From: a virus
Lineage: Duplodnaviria > Heunggongvirae > Uroviricota > Caudoviricetes
Length of the DNA: 26,721 nucleotides
Strand: one strand, 5' to 3'
IMG/VR virus record: IMGVR_UViG_2778260996_000006
The translations under genes were made by a program, and so were the position numbers. Positions within the stretch are counted from its first letter, which is position 1, and the number at the start of each line of letters is the position of its first letter. Positions 1,368 through 19,849 of this stretch are shown here, one piece after another. The notes below the pieces were generated by a model. It was given only the letters and a program-made list of their open reading frames with translations, had not been told where the DNA came from and ran no database searches.

Positions 1368-2871
1368 CTATAATCCTCTCTGAAAAGCAGTGCTGGATGG
1401 CATATCCTGCGCACCGCGCGCTTCGCACATCATATCCATGTACCACGCCTGGCCCCTTGTATCGCCAGTGTACATAATCCCGCGCACAATATAAACGCCA
1501 TCCGTTGCGATGCTGGCAGGCTGCGATGTGGTGCCGCTTAGCGTAATATTTCCGTCCGTGTTCTGGTCGGTGATCTGCCCACCAGCCATAGCGATATCGT
1601 TGTTCGACAACGCGGTGCGATATACGGAAGCCTGATCCAGTTGAATGAGCCCATTAACCCGGATGTTCGGATTAATAAGCGCGCGAACGTTTACGCCGTT
1701 GCCGATGGTCTGCTGCGGCATGCCAATAAGCCCGGTAGCGCTGTTGAGCACAATCGCTTCGTGAACATATTCATTATTCGCCACCATCTGGCGCTGACCG
1801 TCTACGAATTGCCATGTTGCGCCACATTGCCCGGCTACGTTATCCATTAGATGCCGCGTCATGCCAAAGAGCACCCGCCCCCGGGGGAATACAGTAGCAG
1901 GCATTTCAGGCGTCAGGCCTTCGGTCGCACCTTTGGCTTCGAAGTCTTTCATCAGCGCACGGTTCACATCAGCGACCGTGTAACCGGCAGCCAGCGTCTG
2001 TGAGGTTATACTGGTGGCAAAAGCCAGATCAGTATCTGCTGCCTGAATCAGGACGTAGGAATCAACCGGACTGTCTTTTCCTGTAACCGAGTAGCGAATT
2101 TCACCGCTGAAAATCAGTCCGTAGTTGCGGCCATCACTCTGGCCCACGTCCGCCGCATCAACCTCCCGCACGATCCCGACGTCGCTTGCCGACACCTCCG
2201 GCGCGATACCGTCGTAACCCGCAATCAGACGCACTTTCGAAAACTCCCGCCCGGTGATTCGGTTCACAGTATCTGCCGAGAGGTTATAAATTTTGATAGT
2301 CCCTACCCGGGACGCGCTGCTGATGTTGAACCAGTCGATCGTAAAGGTCACTTTAAAATCACTTAGCTCAATTCCCTGACCGTTCCCGTCCACAAGCTGC
2401 ATTCACATCAGCGACCGTGTAACCGGCAGCCAGCGTCTGTGAGGTTATACTGGTGGCAAAAGCCAGATCAGTATCTGCTGCCTGAATCAGGACGTAGGAA
2501 TCAACCGGACTGTCTTTTCCTGTAACCGAGTAGCGAATTTCACCGCTGAAAATCAGTCCGTAGTTGCGGCCATCACTCTGGCCCACGTCCGCCGCATCAA
2601 CCTCCCGCACGATCCCGACGTCGCTTGCCGACACCTCCGGCGCGATACCGTCGTAACCCGCAATCAGACGCACTTTCGAAAACTCCCGCCCGGTGATTCG
2701 GTTCACAGTATCTGCCGAGAGGTTATAAATTTTGATAGTCCCTACCCGGGACGCGCTGCTGATGTTGAACCAGTCGATCGTAAAGGTCACTTTAAAATCA
2801 CTTAGCTCAATTCCCTGACCGTTCCCGTCCACAAGCTGCAGCTCGAAATGTCTCATCCAGTTCTGTGACAT
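1368..2871 (-). pseudogene. distal tail/baseplate-hub-like protein, reading frame broken by an internal 439-bp tandem duplication
   Basis: ORFs 2368..2871 and 1368..2402 carry the same 146-aa segment; removing one repeat copy restores a single ORF of about 354 aa. Confidence 0.6.
1963..2840. repeat. perfect tandem direct duplication, 2 x 439 bp (1963-2401 and 2402-2840)
   Basis: Base-by-base comparison shows identity over both copies; flanks differ (1962 g vs 2401 a; 2402 t vs 2841 g). Confidence 0.9.
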
Positions 2872-2873
2872 GC

Positions 2874-3176
2874 TTACTCCGTTGATACCAGTAAATGGCT
2901 GCGACCGCCCAGGTCAGTTTTTGTGGGGTAATCCTGTGTGTTGTCATCACAGACCACCACCAGCTTAAAACCAAGCCCCATACAGGCGTACTGCGCCAGC
3001 AGGTCAGCACCAGTGACGAGAGGAATACCGGAGATTACCGGCTCCCCTCTGTCGTTCTGCAGGTCCATAATCCAGTACAGATCGCGCCATATGATGCTAA
3101 TCCGCCAGGTAACACCACCCAGGACGATGCTGAACTGCTGGTTGTCCGCTGTCAGCGGAATTTCCTGAATTGCCAT
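2874..3176 (-). CDS. hypothetical tail protein (100 aa)
   Basis: ORF track; position downstream of tape measure in tightly packed operon. Confidence 0.45.
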   Translation of the reverse strand: MAIQEIPLTADNQQFSIVLGGVTWRISIIWRDLYWIMDLQNDRGEPVISGIPLVTGADLLAQYACMGLGFKLVVVCDDNTQDYPTKTDLGGRSHLLVSTE

Positions 3177-3763
3177 TAGCCGCCCCCCAGTAATGACGCC
3201 ACGTTACCCGTGATGCTTTTCAGCAGTGAAGTATCTGGAGGCTTGGTGGTTTTGTTGCCGCTGTTCTGTACCGCCGACGTGCTGGCCCCTTCCTTCATGT
3301 TGGTTTTATCCGCGACGGAAATCTGCTGTGTCCGGGAGATAAGGACCTCCCTCAGGGTGAGGACGGCGGACAGGACGTTTTCGGTTGTCTTGTCCGTCGT
3401 CACTTCCAGCGCCCGGATCAACATGTTGCTGTACAGTCGTTTACCGGTTACCACATCGAAGGGGATACGGCTTTCCTGCAGATCCAGTAGCTCCTGATAC
3501 GTCTGCTGAGGACTCAGGCCGAGCAGGCTGGTAGCCGTCAGGTTACTGGCAAAATCCAGCAATGCGCCACCACCGGCGAAACCAACCTCCATCACCACTT
3601 CTGACGGTTTTTTATAGGCATGATCAGCGACAGCGGCCCCGACCTCTACCGGATGCTCTGTTATTTCAAGCATATCTGTATGCTTCTCTGAAATAACAAC
3701 ACAGGGAACAATCATTCCTATTTTTCTGCTCTGCTGATGAAAAAGTGTAGAGAGAATATCCAC
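3176..3763 (-). CDS. hypothetical tail protein (195 aa), start overlaps tape-measure stop (TGATG)
   Basis: ORF track; translational coupling to the upstream gene. Confidence 0.5.
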   Translation of the reverse strand: MDILSTLFHQQSRKIGMIVPCVVISEKHTDMLEITEHPVEVGAAVADHAYKKPSEVVMEVGFAGGGALLDFASNLTATSLLGLSPQQTYQELLDLQESRIPFDVVTGKRLYSNMLIRALEVTTDKTTENVLSAVLTLREVLISRTQQISVADKTNMKEGASTSAVQNSGNKTTKPPDTSLLKSITGNVASLLGGG

Positions 3764-5751
3764 TAACCCACCCTCACCTGATTACTTCGCATGACCTGAG
3801 CATTTGCAGACTGTTGCCGACGTGCAACCTCATTACCGACAGCGTGCGGATCTCCACCACCGTAAATGTGGTAGGTATTTTGCTGGTTAACCTCTGTCAC
3901 TTTGCCACTAATTCCCGCCACGGCAGCCTTATTAATCAGCTCCCGAGAATAGATATTTCTTCCATTCTCATGCTGGATAATGCTGCTCATCAATGCTGAC
4001 ATGGTTTGCGGATCGCTCATATTCAGGGCAGCCCGGGGATCCACTCCCAGTCGTTGCGATACAGCCCTGATATACGCAGTTGTGTTGTTATTATCAGACG
4101 CAGGTGCCCAGGTAGAGATAATTTTCTCCACACTGTTTATTCCCCGTCCGGCGTACAGCATTAACTGACGAGCAAGAGCCCGTAATCCATCAAAAGCAGT
4201 TTCAAATCTGGCAAATCGCCCGCCCGGGCGTTCAAGAGAAGCCCCTGCCTGACCAGCAAAATTAAGGTTTCCCGGATTGTTATTCCGTTCTCCTCGTTTC
4301 GTAGCCTGTGCATGTTGTTCCGGCTCATCATCACCAAACCAGCCGCGTACCGTCCGGCCCACACTGCGGGGATCGAATCCCCAGTGCTCTTTAATCCAGT
4401 CGGCAGTACTGTTAGCGCTGTCTGTAACCATCGGCATCGCTGACGGATTTTCGCTGCCCTGATTAAGTATCTGTTTGCCGATGCTGACGGCATCAGCCCA
4501 GCGGCCATCTTTGATAGCGTTGAGCAGGTCGGCGATCATGTTCAGCATTTTGCTGAATTCGCCCATCTGGTCGATGAAGTTGCTGAAATCCCACTTCAGG
4601 GACCATGATTTGGGGTCAATATTGAGCAGTTTCGCCAGCGCTTTCACCAGGTCGTTAACGGTCGTTTTAAGGTCACGAACCATCTTCAGCGCGGCATCGA
4701 CCTCCGGTTTCCACTTGCCCCAGTCAATCAGGCTGTCGCCGCCTTCCTTCCAGGTCTGATAGTCCTCCCACAGGAGGGCAATACCCGCCGCCAGCGCGGT
4801 AATGAGGCCAATCGGCGACATCCAGAACGTACTGTTCAGAATGCGCAGCGCAATCGTCAGTGCGCCAAACAGCGAGATCAACTCCCGCGTTTGCTTATCC
4901 AGCGATTGCCACCAGGTGATAAGGCCTGATGTCCCCTCAATCAGTCTGAAGAACAGCCGCCCGATAATATCCCCGAGCGCCAGAATGCCTTTTATGGCTT
5001 TCGTCAGGGTCTGCTCGATACGAGGGAAGTTGTCCAGGATATGGCGGCGCAGGGTGTCCAGCGAACCCGCAAGCCCCCCCGCAAGATTAGAGCCGATTTT
5101 GTCACGGGCCATGCCTGCCATCGCGCCAAACTCACGCAGGGAGGTCATAAATTTGTTGGAGCTTCTGGCCGCCTCGTCAGCATTGAAGCCGATAGCTTTC
5201 GCCATTGCGCTGTACTGCCCGGAGAAGCCACCCACACCCCGGCGCATCGCCATAAGGGTATTTTCGTCAATGCCCAGCATCTGCGCATACTGGTTAGCCC
5301 GGTAATACGGCATGCTGCTGAGTTTCTGTCCAACGCCCGTAAAAATAGCGGCCATGTCACGCATGTTACCGCTGGCATCACGGGTCTGTACGCCCAGGCG
5401 ATTCAGAAAGCCTTCTGCACCGGGATTGTTACGAATAAACCGGGATAGGCTTTCCAGAGAAGATCGCGCAGCGTCCACGCTGCCGCCAACCTGCGAAACC
5501 GCATAGCCAATAGACTGAATTCCCTGGACTGTCGCGCCGGTGCGCTGTGACGCCCAGTAAAGATTATCCAGGCCGGAGGCGATCTTAGCCGTGAAGGCCA
5601 CCACGGACAACGCAGCTCCTTCAACAGCCAGCCCCATTTTGATGACATTTGCAGTTGTACCGGCGAGGACAGAACCGAACTTTTTCGCTCCTGCATCATC
5701 CACACTGAAGCCAAGCGAGACGAGGAAATCTTTAATAGTTTCAGCGTTCAT
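3763..5751 (-). CDS. tail tape measure protein
   Basis: Long protein with a central hydrophobic block, directly downstream of the frameshifted chaperone; start trimmed to MNAETIKDF (ATG at 5751, GAGAGAGGA RBS). Confidence 0.8.
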   Translation of the reverse strand: MNAETIKDFLVSLGFSVDDAGAKKFGSVLAGTTANVIKMGLAVEGAALSVVAFTAKIASGLDNLYWASQRTGATVQGIQSIGYAVSQVGGSVDAARSSLESLSRFIRNNPGAEGFLNRLGVQTRDASGNMRDMAAIFTGVGQKLSSMPYYRANQYAQMLGIDENTLMAMRRGVGGFSGQYSAMAKAIGFNADEAARSSNKFMTSLREFGAMAGMARDKIGSNLAGGLAGSLDTLRRHILDNFPRIEQTLTKAIKGILALGDIIGRLFFRLIEGTSGLITWWQSLDKQTRELISLFGALTIALRILNSTFWMSPIGLITALAAGIALLWEDYQTWKEGGDSLIDWGKWKPEVDAALKMVRDLKTTVNDLVKALAKLLNIDPKSWSLKWDFSNFIDQMGEFSKMLNMIADLLNAIKDGRWADAVSIGKQILNQGSENPSAMPMVTDSANSTADWIKEHWGFDPRSVGRTVRGWFGDDEPEQHAQATKRGERNNNPGNLNFAGQAGASLERPGGRFARFETAFDGLRALARQLMLYAGRGINSVEKIISTWAPASDNNNTTAYIRAVSQRLGVDPRAALNMSDPQTMSALMSSIIQHENGRNIYSRELINKAAVAGISGKVTEVNQQNTYHIYGGGDPHAVGNEVARRQQSANAQVMRSNQVRVG

Positions 5752-13703: not shown

Positions 13704-15021
13704 TCTCGATGTCCTCGTCGGTAATGGATGCCCCGATGCCGGTTACGTCAGAATTTTCGCGCAAATCAGTCATAGCGGCTTTCAGTGTCATCAGACCATC
13801 ACCCAGCGCCGTACTGATTGCGTTGGTAGTGTTTAACGCCACCGTTGAGCGATCGACATCAGACATTTGCCAGAGCGGGTTAAACTCAAACGTGAAATCG
13901 TCCGGCAGCGGCTTGCCAAGCTCCGAACGATGCATGATGTCCAGTATCCGCCGCACCGGAAGACGTAAACGCCTCTCCTGTAACGAGCTTACCCGGTCGT
14001 AATAGTTGGCAAGGTCTGCATCGCCGGTAGAAAATCCTTTCGGGGACTGTCCGAACAACCGCACCAGTGGGATACCAACAGCGCCACTAATCTGTTCTGC
14101 AAACTGCGAAAGGATGTCATCCAGACCACTGAAGCTGTACTGATGCGTTTCAAACTTATCCCGCGAGTCCATGAGTGTCATACCTTCATTGCTCTGGAAC
14201 TGTCGAATCAGGTCGATATTCTTCAGCAACGCTTCATACGCAGGACCACCAAGTGCGATAAGCTCGCGTAGCTTCTCCACGCTGTAGGTGCGCAGATGCG
14301 CCTTGTAGACCAGCTGCGCCGCGCCGACAGTAGCGCTGTCGAACGCGGTAAGACGATCCCAGATACGCTCTACAACCGACATTCCCCATTCGTTCTCGGT
14401 CATCTTCTGCTGAAATGGCAGCGTGACGCCATCAAAGCGAATCAGGCGACTGTGATGAATGCGCCAGGCAGGAATTCCCGTTGCTGTGGTCACCACATCG
14501 TAAAACTCAGGTTTACCCAGGTCCGGCCCCATATCTTTAATGCGGCGGGTCAGTACCGGGTCGATCATCCAGCGGTCGAGCGGGAGAATCCCCTTAAACT
14601 TGCCCTTACCGATGGTTTCGGGTCGCAGCGGGGTCATTGGTGCCTGCCCCTCAATCATGATGAAACCCACCGCGCCGCCGTAGAGGCGCGACCATTTCAG
14701 CACGTCATTCAGCGCATCCCAGATTTGCAACTCATCCAGTTGTGATTCGAGAATGCCACGATCTTTTGCATCAATTTCCGACGTGATGCGAATGCCTTTG
14801 CGGGTCATATCATCCGGGATAGCATCGACTGCTTCGCCGATGATCCAGGATGAACGATAGGACCATTCCACCAGCATGCGGTTACGACTGGTGAAATTAG
14901 CCCGGTAGGTGGATGCTGAGTGCTGGTTAGGTGTCTGCATCCCTACGCGGGCAATAAAATTCTCATAACCATCAGCTGTGGCCTGCGCAGTTCGCCGCAG
15001 GGCTTGTTTGTTTCGTGCCAT
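13555..15021 (-). CDS. portal protein (488 aa)
   Basis: Size, acidic C-terminal tail, position directly after large terminase. Confidence 0.75.
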   Translation of the reverse strand: MARNKQALRRTAQATADGYENFIARVGMQTPNQHSASTYRANFTSRNRMLVEWSYRSSWIIGEAVDAIPDDMTRKGIRITSEIDAKDRGILESQLDELQIWDALNDVLKWSRLYGGAVGFIMIEGQAPMTPLRPETIGKGKFKGILPLDRWMIDPVLTRRIKDMGPDLGKPEFYDVVTTATGIPAWRIHHSRLIRFDGVTLPFQQKMTENEWGMSVVERIWDRLTAFDSATVGAAQLVYKAHLRTYSVEKLRELIALGGPAYEALLKNIDLIRQFQSNEGMTLMDSRDKFETHQYSFSGLDDILSQFAEQISGAVGIPLVRLFGQSPKGFSTGDADLANYYDRVSSLQERRLRLPVRRILDIMHRSELGKPLPDDFTFEFNPLWQMSDVDRSTVALNTTNAISTALGDGLMTLKAAMTDLRENSDVTGIGASITDEDIENAEDEAPPGIGESDDEPQEPSGGNPLSNQPTQDSAGGRRHRKWSLRWFK

Positions 15022-16643
15022 CAGGCCTGTCTCCCTAGCAGCTCCCAGATGTTCAGGGCTGAATTCATTGGGGCATAGTTGATCATCACCGAGTCGGCAA
15101 GGTTTGGCGATCGGGTTCCATCAGGCTGTTTATCAATAACGATTTTTCCCACACCATTAATGGAATAGGTCGGCTGCGAAAGCTCGATGATGAGTTTATC
15201 TTTGAGTGCCATGCTACTGCTGATTGAGATGATTTCGTCCGGGTTGTAAGCCATACCTTCAACCACGGCGCGCCAGGTATTCTGAAAAAGTTTACGTAAC
15301 CGCCACCAGCTCTGGGCTTTGGCGTTAGCGAAGAAGTCCTTGTTCAGACGTGCGGCTTGCCCGTTGTCCCCGCGAACAGCTTCATCATCCGGATCAAATA
15401 CCGCGCCACTACCTCGAAACGGTGTGGCAAGTATTGACGGTCGACGCGCAGCGTTACGCAGTTCGTTGATAGCGCGTGCATCGCCGCGAACGCCAGCGCC
15501 CAGCCCGTCCTCGTCAAAGCGAAACTCTTCGAGGTTGTCCTGTTCGCAAAAGCCGAAAACCTTCTCGACGGACTGATAAATGTCGCTGCCCACACCGGAC
15601 CATTCCCGCACATTTTCCAGGAGGAAGCCATGACGGGTGGAAAAGGCATTTTTGTCCCTGCCTTCGTCGGCGACATCCATCGCGCCAAGTCGTTTGCCTG
15701 TTGGCTGGATACCCAGTTTGATATGCGCATCAACGGCAGCCTGTACCCATTCGGATGGAATCAGAACGCCTTCCGCTGATGCGCTGTAGTTCAGATCAAG
15801 TTCCTGTGCCACCACCACCGGATTATCGATTTTCTCGCATTCCCTGCGATACCACTCTTCATCCTTGCGAGGATCATCCCGCCAGTGGAATGTGAATACC
15901 GGTATCTTCCCGCCATGACGCTTCTGAGCGAACGGGTTAGCCATGCCGTTAACTGAACTCAGGTCGATACGGCAACGCGTCGTTTGTGACAACGCCGCAT
16001 CAATCAGCAGAGGACGCTGAAGGAATGCAGCCTCATCAACCAGATAAAGCGTGGTACGGTCACCACGACCAATATTATCGCCAGCCTCGCCTTTGATAAC
16101 GGCACCAGTTTCAGGAAACTCAACACGCATATATGGCGCGTGCTTCTTCTCGCTCCACGAACCGCGAAACTCTACAGGTAGCGTTTCCACGAACTTGCGT
16201 GCCTTCCAGAACAATGCTTTCGGGTCACCGGTGCTGTCGACGTATTCCTCTTTACGGGAGCCGAAACCGATAACCATTTCTTTGTTGAAGAGACAAAGCG
16301 AGCAGGCCAGTCCGATCGCGGTCCAACTGAGCCCCATTTCACGGGATTTTTCGGTAATACCATTCTCCCGATTGCCCCAGCGTTCCATAATCCAGTGGAT
16401 CCACTCCTCCTGCTTAGGGAAGAGTAAAAACGGAATGGTCACCGGCAGGCCATAATCAATATTACGCGGGTCCGTTGTCATGCCCCAGTCGATGATGAAC
16501 TGAGCCGGATTGGTTCGGTAAAACTGCTTCAATACGGGCAATATTTCAGGATTCTGGCGAATGCGCTGTAGGCGTTCCATCCGCCATTCAAAAACCATCT
16601 GGTAATCAGGATGTTTAAAATCGAAGGGGAATGGTAACGGCAT
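15021..16643 (-). CDS. terminase large subunit (540 aa)
   Basis: N-terminal ATPase with Walker-B-like [10 protein letters not shown]-terminal nuclease-like region; position after small terminase. Confidence 0.85.
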
Positions 16644-17279: not shown

Positions 17280-17804
17280 TTACCGGGACTGTTCTATTTG
17301 TCGGACACCAGCCAACTGGTTATTCGCCTTCTCGATGGCTGCCAACAGTGGGTTAATCCACAGAACAGCCTGGCAATATGTCAACGTTCTGGTGGTAGTG
17401 GCACGATCACCGGCTGAGTCAATGTCCCCGGAATCGGCGTGCAATGCGCTGGCGCGTAAACGGTTCGCGTAGTTGAGCAACCCGACAGCAATATCAACAG
17501 GAACAGGGAAATCACAGTTCTTTTCACGGAGCAGAACCTCACGGTATTTGATGACTGTCTTCTCGTGACCGATGTCGACCAGAGAATTTAATCGGCTTGC
17601 GTTTTCTGCTATCTGGTTAAAACGATTGAAGTTTAATGCCTGATTAGCTATCACTTTCCCTTGATATTCAGCTTCACCTTCCGCTTTATCAGCCCGCAAC
17701 TTTTCTGCCTGATACTTGCTGTGGTAATGGTTTGCAGACCAGACGAGCGCCCCAAAGGCAGAGAAGAAAAATGCCGCGATGACAATCTTATAAGTCAGCT
17801 TCAT
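17280..17804 (-). CDS. Rz: i-spanin (Rz-like)
   Basis: N-terminal TM anchor, periplasmic body, position after endolysin, embedded lipoprotein ORF. Confidence 0.7.
   Translation of the reverse strand: MKLTYKIVIAAFFFSAFGALVWSANHYHSKYQAEKLRADKAEGEAEYQGKVIANQALNFNRFNQIAENASRLNSLVDIGHEKTVIKYREVLLREKNCDFPVPVDIAVGLLNYANRLRASALHADSGDIDSAGDRATTTRTLTYCQAVLWINPLLAAIEKANNQLAGVRQIEQSR
17381..17527 (-). CDS. Rz1: o-spanin (Rz1-like outer-membrane lipoprotein, 48 aa) embedded in the +1 frame of Rz
   Basis: GTG start with GAGG 9 nt upstream; MKRTVISLFLLILLSGC lipobox followed by Pro-rich mature peptide; missing from the ORF track. Confidence 0.6.
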   Translation of the reverse strand: MKRTVISLFLLILLSGCSTTRTVYAPAHCTPIPGTLTQPVIVPLPPER

Positions 17805-18264
17805 TTACCACCCCACCAGCATCTTTAAACCTGGAAATCAGGTCACCGATTTTATGTTCATACTGACCGTAACCTGCACCAGGTAACGACGCCCAGATAT
17901 TGCTGCAACGGTCGATTGCCTGACGAATATCGCCACGGTCAATCATCGGTAAAGCGCCACGCTCTTTAATCTGCTGCAGCGCCACAGCGTCCTGACTTTC
18001 TGGCGAAAAATCTTTCAGGCCAAGCTGCTTGCGGTAGGCATCCCACCAGCGTGAAAGAAGCTGATACCGGCCTGCGGCTGTTGATTTAAGCTTCGGGTTT
18101 AGCGTGACAAGTTTGCGAGGGTGATCGGAGTAATCAGTGAACAACTCACCTCCGACGATAACGTCATAACCGTGATTACGTGTCGGTTGTCGCCCGTTAT
18201 CCGTTCCTTCTGACCATGCCACCATATCCAGGAAAGCTTTGCGTTGGGAATTTAGTGTCTGCAT
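17788..18264 (-). CDS. R: endolysin, lambda R-type lytic transglycosylase (158 aa)
   Basis: Near-identical to lambda R over most of its length as recalled (NSQRKAFLDMVAWSEGTDNGRQ..., DAVALQQIKERGALPMIDRGDIRQAIDRCSNIWASLPGAGYGQ). Confidence 0.95.
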   Translation of the reverse strand: MQTLNSQRKAFLDMVAWSEGTDNGRQPTRNHGYDVIVGGELFTDYSDHPRKLVTLNPKLKSTAAGRYQLLSRWWDAYRKQLGLKDFSPESQDAVALQQIKERGALPMIDRGDIRQAIDRCSNIWASLPGAGYGQYEHKIGDLISRFKDAGGVVNEADL

Positions 18265-18267
18265 GAA

Positions 18268-18609
18268 TTACTCCTTAGAGCCACCAAACTTGTTACCGAT
18301 TACTCGCATTGCAGCCCCACGAATAGCATCGACACCGATCAGCCCAACACCACCACCAATGGCAACAGAAAGAGATTTAGGCCATCCAACATACTCAAGA
18401 GCGGATGCAAAGGTCAGCGTCAGAGCACCACAGAGCAAAATCTCAAGCGTTTTTCGTTTCCAGCCGCCGCCACCGCCAAAATAGGCAATGCGCAAGCCAG
18501 CCATAACAATTGACATAACCACTGCGCCCAACGGCGTATCTCCACGCCACCAACTTTGTAAGAGTTCCAGTAAGTCAGGCCAGGAATGAGGAGCATTGTG
18601 CATTTTCAT
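18268..18609 (-). CDS. S: class I holin with dual-start (MKM) motif
   Basis: Start trimmed to ATG 18609 (GGAGG upstream); MKM start as in lambda S; lambda-S-like hydrophobic core. Confidence 0.8.
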   Translation of the reverse strand: MKMHNAPHSWPDLLELLQSWWRGDTPLGAVVMSIVMAGLRIAYFGGGGGWKRKTLEILLCGALTLTFASALEYVGWPKSLSVAIGGGVGLIGVDAIRGAAMRVIGNKFGGSKE

Positions 18610-18710
18610 ACTTCCCACCTCCGCCATTACGGGGTGTTGTTGAAAGGCGGGCCCTGCGTATACGCCCGTAGGATTGGGTTATGAGCCGTCCTTCGGTGGG
18701 CCCTGAATAC

Positions 18711-18733
18711 AAAAAAAGTTCGCCATAGCGAAC
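18711..18733 (-). terminator. intrinsic terminator in the late leader (tR'-like)
   Basis: Minus-strand GUUCGC-UAUG-GCGAAC hairpin (plus 18718-18733) followed by 7 U (rc of 18711-18717), about 85 nt upstream of the holin start. Confidence 0.5.
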
Positions 18734-19218
18734 CTTGTTAAATTTGTTAAAAAAGGAAGTTATTTAACATAATGTACGTTATAGGAACCACACGATCCCC
18801 GCTCGCAATAGATTTGCGATGAAAGGCCTATTTAATCAACTTAAGTGGTCCAGAATGACGAAATTCGAGTGAATAAAAGGTGCATAAAAAAGGGCAAAAA
18901 CTGCATAGCGTTTTTTCGCAGCGAAAGCCCTGTTTTATTAGCTTTTCCCCAGAATGGGGCAATAAAAAAGGCCCCCTTGCGGAAGCCTCTTCGTGATGAA
19001 CTGTTTTCAACAGATATCAGGCTAATCGGCTTTTTGGAATTCCACAACTATTTTTTATCTTACCTTGATGCCTGATGCCGTCAGATGTTTACGACAGTCC
19101 TGAATACCTTCGTTATAACCCGCATCGTAGAAGCTATCCGGCTTTGCCTTCAGCGCAGGAAGCGTAACGCTGGTAGCTCTTCGTTCGGCCAGAACACCTG
19201 CCTGAAAGAGTGTCCACA

Positions 19219-19426: not shown

Positions 19427-19849
19427 TTATGCCGCCGAGCAGCTCCTACGCAAAGTCCTGATAGCCTGAGGCTTTGACTGAACCGACTGATCCATTTCGA
19501 GCACCACATCCAGCATGGCTAAGCAACCGTCAATAAATCCCTCTGCCGCCTGAAGCCTCTTCAGAACGTGGGTGTGAGATACGCCGAGCTTCTCACCCAT
19601 CGCCCGCACGGGCATGGCCTGGACGTAATGCCACTCAAGGAGCGTGCACAGATACGGATCTTTTTTCTTCAGGCAGCTCATAGCGGAGTTGATGATAAGA
19701 CCGTCATTGTCACTGCATTTCAGCCTTCCAGACTGCGTCGCGGGTAGCAGATTCTTAAACCCGGCTGCAACAGGAGGAAAGTAGACGCTACCACCTTCAC
19801 TCGCTGCCCAGCCACCCCAGCGCTCTAAAACCTGTTGAATATTACGCAT
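19427..19849 (-). CDS. Q: late-gene antiterminator Q (140 aa)
   Basis: Close resemblance to enterobacterial prophage Q/QuuD proteins as recalled (QQVLERWGGWAA..., VAAGFKNLL, LKRLQAAEGFIDG); positioned upstream of lysis genes. Confidence 0.85.
   Translation of the reverse strand: MRNIQQVLERWGGWAASEGGSVYFPPVAAGFKNLLPATQSGRLKCSDNDGLIINSAMSCLKKKDPYLCTLLEWHYVQAMPVRAMGEKLGVSHTHVLKRLQAAEGFIDGCLAMLDVVLEMDQSVQSKPQAIRTLRRSCSAA

Follow-up and report, generated by a model that had tools for sequence, protein, structure and literature searches.

The window analysed in this study is the whole 26,721-nucleotide stretch of IMG/VR virus record IMGVR_UViG_2778260996_000006 (Duplodnaviria; Heunggongvirae; Uroviricota; Caudoviricetes). 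It includes a lysis cassette in which a short open reading frame (ORF) at 17381..17527 lies in the +1 frame within the gene for an Rz-like inner-membrane spanin (i-spanin; 17280..17804); coordinates of the lysis genes and of their parts refer to the minus strand throughout. The data are best explained if the short ORF is a functional gene for an Rz1-type outer-membrane spanin (o-spanin), the pair belongs to the embedded spanin family of phages HK225, ZF40 and mEp237, and this family was derived from the overlapped LysB/LysC-type spanins of P2, SfV, Mu-like phages and APSE by the deletion of one nucleotide. The probability of this combined reading is put at roughly 0.8. Its evolutionary core, namely that the HK225-type embedded spanins descend from overlapped spanins of the LysB/LysC type through a one-base frameshift in the overlap that gave the C-terminal helical domain of the o-spanin to the i-spanin, is considered probable.

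The embedded o-spanin gene

The first-pass annotation had proposed a 48-codon ORF with a GTG start and a GAGG ribosome-binding site in the +1 frame of Rz, and all of these elements are present. The Rz1 ORF (17381..17527) consists of 48 sense codons and a TGA stop, with the GTG at 17527-17525 and the TGA at 17383-17381, and is offset from the Rz ORF by 277 nt. The GAGG Shine-Dalgarno-like site is located at 17537..17540 and is separated from the GTG by a 9-nt spacer (TTCTGCTCC). The predicted product begins with a lipoprotein signal peptide of 16 residues, M/V-KRTVISLFLLILLSG (17480..17527), that has K-R at the N-terminus followed by a hydrophobic core. The lipobox L-S-G-C ends at Cys17 (17477-17479), and the mature peptide CSTTRTVYAPAHCTPIPGTLTQPVIVPLPPER (17384..17479) has 32 aa, seven of which are Pro. 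Hence, the lipoprotein signal and the proline-rich mature peptide that had been proposed were upheld on re-translation. The second residue of the mature form (+2) is Ser, and a second Cys is found at position 29 of the precursor (17441-17443). Sorting of E. coli lipoproteins depends on the +2 residue, which determines avoidance of the Lol system, and the absence of Asp at this position is as expected for an outer-membrane lipoprotein.

The segment MKRTVISLFLLILLSG followed by Cys satisfies a self-written lipobox rule of the PROSITE PS00013 type, which was used in place of LipoP or SignalP, and the match of Rz1 to the Pfam model LPAM_1 is borderline (18.5 bits against a cutoff of 20). The same rule was satisfied by six of the 1065 start/ORF combinations in the window, including the two possible starts of the Rz1 ORF. 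As the other four arise by chance, in off-frame ORFs that have no hydrophobic core, they lend some weight to the idea that the Rz1 ORF is itself a chance ORF with a fortuitous lipobox in an alternative frame of Rz. The lipobox match alone is not beyond chance, and the case for the gene therefore rests on its context and conservation.

The second possible start, a GTG at 17542 with no ribosome-binding site, gives a 53-aa version of the protein, and it is this version that is annotated in GenBank. In relatives from E. coli phages, the sequence GGGAGA occupies the position of the GAGG in the window, ahead of a conserved GTG. In phages OS31, BZS1, yong2 and BUCT708, the o-spanin apparently begins at a TTG that precedes the lipobox Cys by 24 codons and has a good ribosome-binding site of the GGAG type, which gives a signal peptide of 23 residues. 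The window has TCA in place of this TTG, and must use the downstream GTG.

A LysC domain divided between two reading frames

The only spanin-related Pfam family matched by the pair was PF23793 ('Rz1-like lysis system protein LysC'; cutoff 27 bits). The Rz1 ORF covers profile positions 1-33 with a sub-threshold score of 16.9 bits, which falls short of membership as a full LysC protein, and Rz aa 136-173 cover positions 31-68 with 13.5 bits. The two matches abut on the DNA at the Rz1 stop codon, i.e. both halves of the domain are present at the locus. When the two frames were artificially joined at nt 17384, such that Rz1 residues 1-48 are followed by Rz from Leu141, the resulting sequence matched positions 1-68 with 41.9 bits (E 9e-11). 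The same join gave 38.7 bits for HK225 and 43.7 bits for OS31, which can be compared with 64.9 for P2 LysC, 64.3 for SfV Rz1, 59.3 for a Yersinia phage o-spanin and 38.1 for that of Marinobacter phage AS1, all of which are contiguous proteins. For both the Rz1 ORF and the joined sequence, a scan against NCBIfam produced only weak generic lipoprotein-signal matches; it gave no useful match for Rz.

The division was also seen with a profile hidden Markov model (HMM) built from nine long SfV-type o-spanins. The Rz1 frame matched positions 1-31 of this HMM (E 9e-5) and Rz aa 140-174 matched positions 32-66 (E 3e-7), while the next best of 475 segments of the window had an E value of 0.78; the split pattern was likewise found in 12 of the 12 other relatives tested. 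In the reciprocal comparison, an HMM of the Rz tail matched the long o-spanins at residues 45-66 (E down to 1e-6), matched no SfV-type i-spanin, and reached P2 LysB only with E 7.1. The o-spanin of SfV (CGSTRTVYVPIPAVPLPASLTTETPQPVIPEP-LTYGASLDLNVSLLSALGQCNIDKAGIRSIE) and the joined sequence of the window (CSTTRTVYAPAHCTPIPGTLTQPVIVPLPPER-LTYCQAVLWINPLLAAIEKANNQLAGVRQIE) align across the junction and over the full length without gaps, and are 41% identical. In tblastn searches with the joined sequence, two pieces were recovered in the relatives of the window that have the split arrangement, and a single piece in SfV, SfII, SfIV, Klebsiella phages Mulock and RAH1, Yersinia phage vB_YenM, Vibrio phage Pm34, Aeromonas phages, APSE and Mu-like phages.

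The phages that gave a single piece have an overlapped architecture, in which Rz of 111-149 aa (about 130 aa in the SfV/Mu type) is accompanied by an o-spanin of 80-93 aa, the gene for which continues for 130-160 nt beyond the end of Rz. In the window, the o-spanin ends after 32 mature residues and the equivalent of the C-terminal helix of the long form is found in Rz. The +1 register and the TRTVY and YANxLR motifs are shared by the window and by the SfV/Mu type (the 'Mu' o-spanin family comprising Mu, D108, SfV, SfIV and APSE). The Cys in the QCN motif of the long SfV-type form has no counterpart in the window, which has KAN at this place and new Cys residues at Rz1 position 29 and Rz position 144. 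P2 LysC resembles the joined sequence in having a lipobox, a proline-rich segment and then a helical segment that contains Cys; however, the P2 LysB/LysC pair is overlapped and the window pair embedded, and the real 48-aa protein of the window covers only profile positions 1-33.

Judged from these alignments, the window Rz1 is the N-terminal half of a LysC-type o-spanin domain, and the other half lies in the Rz frame. Variants in which indels have fused the Rz1 and Rz frames, in either direction, were also encountered (P0002, WP_431834235.1, 78 aa; P0054, 140 aa; P0123, 121 aa). The first of these, a single-genome re-fusion of Rz1 to Rz, is named 'Rz1-like lysis system protein LysC' by NCBI.

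Conservation of the embedded frame

A +1-frame lipoprotein ORF was retained in all 14 related phage loci inspected, which have Rz homologues that are 37-98% identical. These loci include the E. coli phages HK225, mEp237, LLS, Flotzy, PHB10 and 606R2, Serratia phages OS31 and BZS1, Hafnia phage yong2, Pectobacterium phage ZF40, Providencia phage PSTCR3, and phages BUCT708 and EKP1 that were deposited under Stenotrophomonas and Elizabethkingia, respectively. The mature o-spanin has 32 aa in each (33 in ZF40), its stop falls on the same codon (one codon later in ZF40), and its consensus is C-S-x-TRTVYVPAQC-TPIP-x-x-LTQP-x-x-x-PLPP-x-x. In the region of overlap, identity to the window is 59-75% for the Rz1 frame versus 16-53% for the Rz frame. 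BUCT708 and EKP1 have a spanin pair of the Enterobacterales type, with mature o-spanins that are 69% and 59% identical to that of the window, respectively, and their host assignments look odd.

A larger set of 202 loci was collected using a junction motif at the DNA level. The motif covers PP-x-x and [LIM]TYCQAV but leaves out the lipobox, and matches were found in at least 120 IMG/VR contigs and at 83 loci in species-representative genomes. The genera named among the matches all belong to Enterobacterales, and range from Escherichia relatives to Erwinia, Serratia, Providencia, Morganella and Brenneria. The stop was found at the expected place in 201 of the 202 loci and a lipobox in 198, with a mature length of 32 aa in 194 and 30 aa in four. 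These loci represent 137 distinct mature o-spanins and 147 distinct tails.

Against a chance origin of the Rz1 ORF stand its significant homology to o-spanin families, which includes a match to phrog_456 ('Rz-like spanin', E 7.5e-07), and the conservation of ORF, lipobox and stop position over the 137 distinct sequences; such an origin is considered next to impossible. As judged by conservation beyond chance, the ORF at 17381..17527 is a real o-spanin gene.

A further explanation is that the split resulted from a recent inactivating frameshift, or from a sequencing error, in a decaying prophage, in which case the 48-codon ORF would be a truncated pseudogene. Spanins are dispensable under some laboratory conditions, and single-genome indel variants of the locus exist (P0002 and P0054, above), both of which would fit decay. 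However, at least 110 complete E. coli genomes carry the locus in identical form, the same frames are kept in the 14 divergent phages and in 198 of the 202 Enterobacterales loci with their 137 o-spanin and 147 tail sequences, and no part of Rz is better conserved than the tail. Inactivation is hence barely credible. Members of the embedded family include the viable phages HK225, mEp237, ZF40, LLS and vB_EcoM-606R2.

Assignment to the HK225/ZF40/mEp237 family

HK225, ZF40 and mEp237 have been catalogued in SpaninDB as a family of embedded i-spanins and a family of embedded o-spanins, apart from those of lambda, with a minimum of 40% set both for identity and for the fraction of the length covered (Kongari et al. 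2018, PMC6139136). The mature o-spanin of the window is 72-75% identical to those of all three members, and the window Rz is 64% identical to that of HK225 over 80% of its length. Comparison with known embedded pairs, suggested by the first-pass annotation, thus places the window pair in this family. The Rz proteins of HK225 and mEp237 are 60-64% identical to that of the window over aligned aa 29/36-174, and that of ZF40 is 37% identical. All three phages share the architecture of the window, and the tail begins LTYCQAV in HK225 and mEp237 and LTYAQAV in ZF40.

The window differs from the HK225 family in that the first 39 codons of Rz, together with the S and R genes, are SfV-like. Nucleotide identity to SfV is 88.7% over 17688..18582 (-), a segment made up of holin, endolysin and Rz sequence up to codon 39; the homology then stops and Rz continues as HK225-type. 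The window i-spanin is therefore a natural chimera, with an SfV-type membrane anchor and an HK225-type periplasmic domain.

As the arrangement had been described in the first-pass annotation as the canonical Rz/Rz1 one, the possibility that the pair simply belongs to the lambda Rz/Rz1 family, homologous to the embedded pair of lambda, was considered. Lambda and the window both have an o-spanin encoded in the +1 frame and a short, proline-rich mature lipoprotein, and in both the pair is found after S and R, which here are a lambda-family holin and a lambda R-type endolysin. The Cys count is also the same, with two in Rz and one in Rz1 (PMC6139136). However, the mature Rz1 has 40 aa in lambda and 32 aa in the window, and Rz continues for about 19 residues past the Rz1 stop in lambda and for 34 in the window. 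Neither window protein matched the lambda Rz or Rz1 families in a Pfam scan at E<=1, LysC being the only spanin family matched, and neither the related o-spanin HMM nor the Rz-tail HMM matched lambda Rz or Rz1. The body of the window i-spanin fits profiles of the SfV/P2 LysB type, and Kongari et al. 2018 separate HK225, ZF40 and mEp237 from lambda (PMC6139136). Membership of the lambda family is thus highly improbable, and the term canonical holds for the embedded architecture and not for the family.

The gene and its family are already known, and the window ORF is a further member, unannotated in RefSeq, of the catalogued embedded family. An extension of the origin proposed below to the embedded pair of lambda itself was considered and is not claimed, as lambda Rz and Rz1 were unmatched by the o-spanin and tail HMMs.

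Organisation of the Rz i-spanin

Rz (17280..17804) has 174 aa and matches phrog_214 ('Rz-like spanin', E 1.6e-58). A protein search returned 1603 homologues of 165-190 aa, and those carrying a name from their source are mostly called 'hypothetical protein'. No solved structure related to Rz was found. An AlphaFold2 model of the monomer, built from 41 homologues, has a mean predicted local distance difference test (pLDDT) score of 55 and is usable as a sketch of secondary structure only. The layout predicted by this model is a transmembrane helix, a helical periplasmic body, an unstructured linker rich in Ser/Thr/Ala/Asp (residues 122-140) and a C-terminal helix (residues 143-173).

The N-terminal transmembrane segment KIVIAAFFFSAFGALVWS (17736..17789) is helical in the low-confidence model. 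The periplasmic body ends in a conserved region with the motif C97-D-x-P-V-P followed by LLNYANRLR. In a profile comparison with hhalign, HK225-type Rz sequences, with that of the window excluded, aligned to SfV-type Rz and P2 LysB with a probability of 98% (E 1.5e-13). The entire C-terminus of SfV-type Rz aligned to positions 51-131, ending where the linker begins. The linker, HADSGDIDSAGDRATTTRT (aa 122-140; 17385..17441), is predicted to be coil with pLDDT <50. Its DNA also specifies, in the other frame, the proline-rich part of Rz1, and as read in the Rz frame it is poorly conserved. SfV-type i-spanins end near its start.

The tail, LTYCQAVLWINPLLAAIEKANNQLAGVRQIEQSR (aa 141-174; 17283..17384), is homologous to the C-terminal half of LysC-type o-spanins and to no i-spanin. 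Since the SfV-type C-terminus is wholly aligned to positions 51-131, the tail is left with no counterpart in those i-spanins. It is also the best conserved part of Rz, with 57-93% conservation, which argues against a dispensable, neutrally evolving tail.

Frame-switch point and proposed origin of the arrangement

The two frames meet at nt 17384, which is both the third base of the last sense codon of Rz1 (CGT) and the first base of the Rz codon for Leu141 (TTG), and the joined reading therefore uses this base twice. Because the protein alignment across the junction is gap-free, a 1-nt deletion is the simplest account of the difference between the split and contiguous forms. The deletion would have occurred at the junction between PLPPxx and LTY, corresponding to codons 32/33 of the mature o-spanin, in an overlapped ancestor of the LysB/LysC type. 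By this one change, the C-terminal helix of the o-spanin would have entered the Rz frame and the o-spanin frame would have acquired a stop codon. The periplasmic parts would have remained as in the ancestor, with the covalent break between the subunits moved by about 35 residues.

In a different reading of the same junction, ribosomes would undergo programmed -1 frameshifting where the 48-codon ORF ends, and the authentic o-spanin would be the resulting LysC-like protein of 83 aa, with little or none of the short product made. The LysC match of the frames joined at nt 17384 is indeed full-length and above the threshold, and C is invariably the base after the Rz1 stop (TGA-C or TAA-C) in the 14 phage loci (17380..17383 in the window). 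TGA-C is a weak termination context in E. coli. However, the C is invariant because the next Rz codon encodes a conserved Thr (ACN), which counts against a role in recoding. No slippery heptamer of the X-XXY-YYZ type was seen at the junction in the 14 loci inspected, and the bases before the stop vary by lineage (CGT, CGC, CCC, CAA, CGA, GAT, AAT and AAC). In addition, the tail is fully accounted for as part of Rz, the ORF of which is intact in the homologues of 165-190 aa. Programmed frameshifting is hence very unlikely, and the fixed split that would follow from a 1-nt deletion is preferred.

With regard to the direction of the change, the contiguous LysC form occurs in very divergent phages, including P2, Marinobacter AS1 and an Aeromonas podovirus. 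Enterobacterales were the only group in which the split form was found, and its identity to SfV (36-46%) is like that of the contiguous members among themselves. On these alignments the homology of the split and contiguous forms can be accepted, whereas the deletion event and its direction are inferred.

Several points weigh against the proposed origin and function. The direction from overlapped to embedded rests on parsimony, and a close contiguous intermediate, i.e. an o-spanin continuing into the tail seen in the embedded group, was not found in the large protein search, which gave the indel variants and partial proteins. Searching with the DNA pattern carrying one extra base recovered four viral contigs, three of which are ordinary split loci matched by coincidence and one a chance match, and no species-representative genome. 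SfV-type Rz stops about 10 codons before the junction, although Rz of AS1 reaches it; either the Rz stop of the ancestor lay further on, as in AS1, or a second change was needed. With respect to the gene itself, a GTG preceded by a 9-nt spacer does not make a strong initiation site, and the Serratia and Hafnia relatives start at a different TTG further upstream. The structure model of Rz is of low confidence (pLDDT 55), and the support for expression, lipidation and lysis function of Rz1 is computational throughout.

No description of a relation between the HK225-type embedded family and the overlapped SfV/Mu/P2-type families was found in the literature searched. In the 2018 survey of Kongari et al. 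(PMC6139136), no family is said to connect the embedded architecture to any other, the HK225 family is treated as unrelated to the overlapped ones, and the two architectures are concluded to have arisen along separate evolutionary routes. If the alignments are read as above, the LysC domain split between the two genes of the HK225 family is a counter-example to this statement.

Lysis cassette and existing annotation

The endolysin gene (17788..18264) encodes a 158-aa protein of the lambda R type that matches phrog_90 and is almost identical to lambda lysozyme in both length and sequence (PDB 1am7, E 2.3e-95). It had no match in Pfam-A or NCBIfam at E<=1, and its RefSeq name is glycoside hydrolase family 24. 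The holin gene (18268..18627) belongs to the lambda family (TIGR01594, 135.5 bits; PF05106), and the RefSeq start at 18609 gives an MKM dual-start motif. The genes are all on the minus strand, and the Rz1 gene, located inside an i-spanin gene with an N-terminal transmembrane domain directly after the holin and endolysin genes, completes the holin-endolysin-spanin cassette as had been proposed. Downstream of Rz are terS and then terL. As just 61 nt lie between the Rz stop and terS, there is no room for a separate o-spanin gene there, and no other credible lipoprotein ORF was found in the window.

The ORF had also been described as unannotated. This is true of RefSeq/PGAP, in which Rz is a 'hypothetical protein' with no Rz1 feature, and of the records of phage vB_EcoM-606R2, in which Rz is 'endopeptidase Rz' and Rz1 is missing. 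It is not true of BAI31869.1 (O103:H2 12009) and KRR57707.1, in which the 53-aa form of the identical ORF is annotated as 'lipoprotein Rz1 precursor', and relatives of Rz1 are annotated as o-spanins in phages LLS, OS31 and BZS1. The 1.5-kb lysis region is 100% identical in prophages of enterotoxigenic E. coli (ETEC) H10407, O103:H2 12009 and many others; most of it is present in 125 of 5426 complete genomes, and it is 99.5% identical to four vB_EcoM phages. RefSeq/PGAP misses the o-spanin and, in the RefSeq records inspected, names Rz 'hypothetical protein', as it does most named Rz homologues of other Enterobacterales. The reason is that the LysC model scores only half of itself on either protein.

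RefSeq/PGAP also uses 'hypothetical protein' for the large terminase as well as for Rz (H10407 locus coordinates 3558..4501 and 2397..2921; window coordinates 15021..16643 and 17280..17804, respectively). The 90% cluster of the 53-aa Rz1 precursor includes an unrelated 766-aa bird Arf-GAP protein, presumably as a clustering artefact. A terminator-like hairpin with a 9-bp stem and a T-run is present at 18715..18736 (-), and the holin start follows some 90-110 nt downstream. A tR'-type terminator of a lambdoid late operon, subject to Q readthrough, would be expected at this place, though the assignment is a consensus match only. A gene for antiterminator Q is located at 19427..19849 (-). Scans of the window with Rfam and for tRNAs gave no matches.

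Proposed function and implications

By analogy with lambda Rz/Rz1 and P2 LysB/LysC, the pair would act at the last step of lysis. Translation of Rz1 would begin at a separate GTG within the Rz mRNA; after export, Cys17 would receive the lipid and signal peptidase II would remove the signal peptide, leaving a 32-residue proline-rich tether. Because residue +2 is Ser, the lipoprotein would be sorted to the outer membrane. Rz would be the inner-membrane i-spanin, with its N-terminal transmembrane helix and helical periplasmic body, and the two proteins would bridge the periplasm and disrupt or fuse the outer membrane once the holin and endolysin have removed the peptidoglycan. Compared with the overlapped relatives, the periplasmic pieces would be the same, with the helix now tethered to the inner-membrane subunit.

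The two Cys residues of Rz (C97 and C144) and the one in Rz1 (C29) suggest that the subunits may be stabilised by disulfides. Homotypic disulfides, as in lambda, or a heterotypic disulfide between Rz1 and the tail would both fit. The Rz1 Cys was gained in 131 of the 137 distinct split-form sequences, in which another Cys occurs at tail position 4 and the QCN Cys of the long form is lost; the search pattern for the 202 loci itself required the tail Cys. In ZF40, the Rz1 Cys is kept and the tail Cys lies four residues upstream. If a putative C29-C144 disulfide is formed, this bond would replace the peptide bond that was lost.

For annotation, a frame-aware rule, i.e. a 165-190-aa Rz-like ORF that ends with LTYCQAV and the rest of the tail, together with an ORF in the +1 frame that has a lipobox and terminates at the LTY codons, would allow both genes to be found. 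The pair also offers a testable example of how a one-base change in overlapping genes can repartition protein domains, and, if the proposed origin is true, it documents a direct route from the overlapped to the embedded spanin architecture. The spanin complex would then tolerate transfer of a whole helical domain from the outer- to the inner-membrane subunit, which constrains models of the contacts between the subunits and of the parts that are needed merely somewhere in the periplasmic bridge. The HK225-type family would thus represent a natural experiment in which the covalent break in a two-subunit, membrane-bridging complex appears to have been moved by about 35 residues with function kept.

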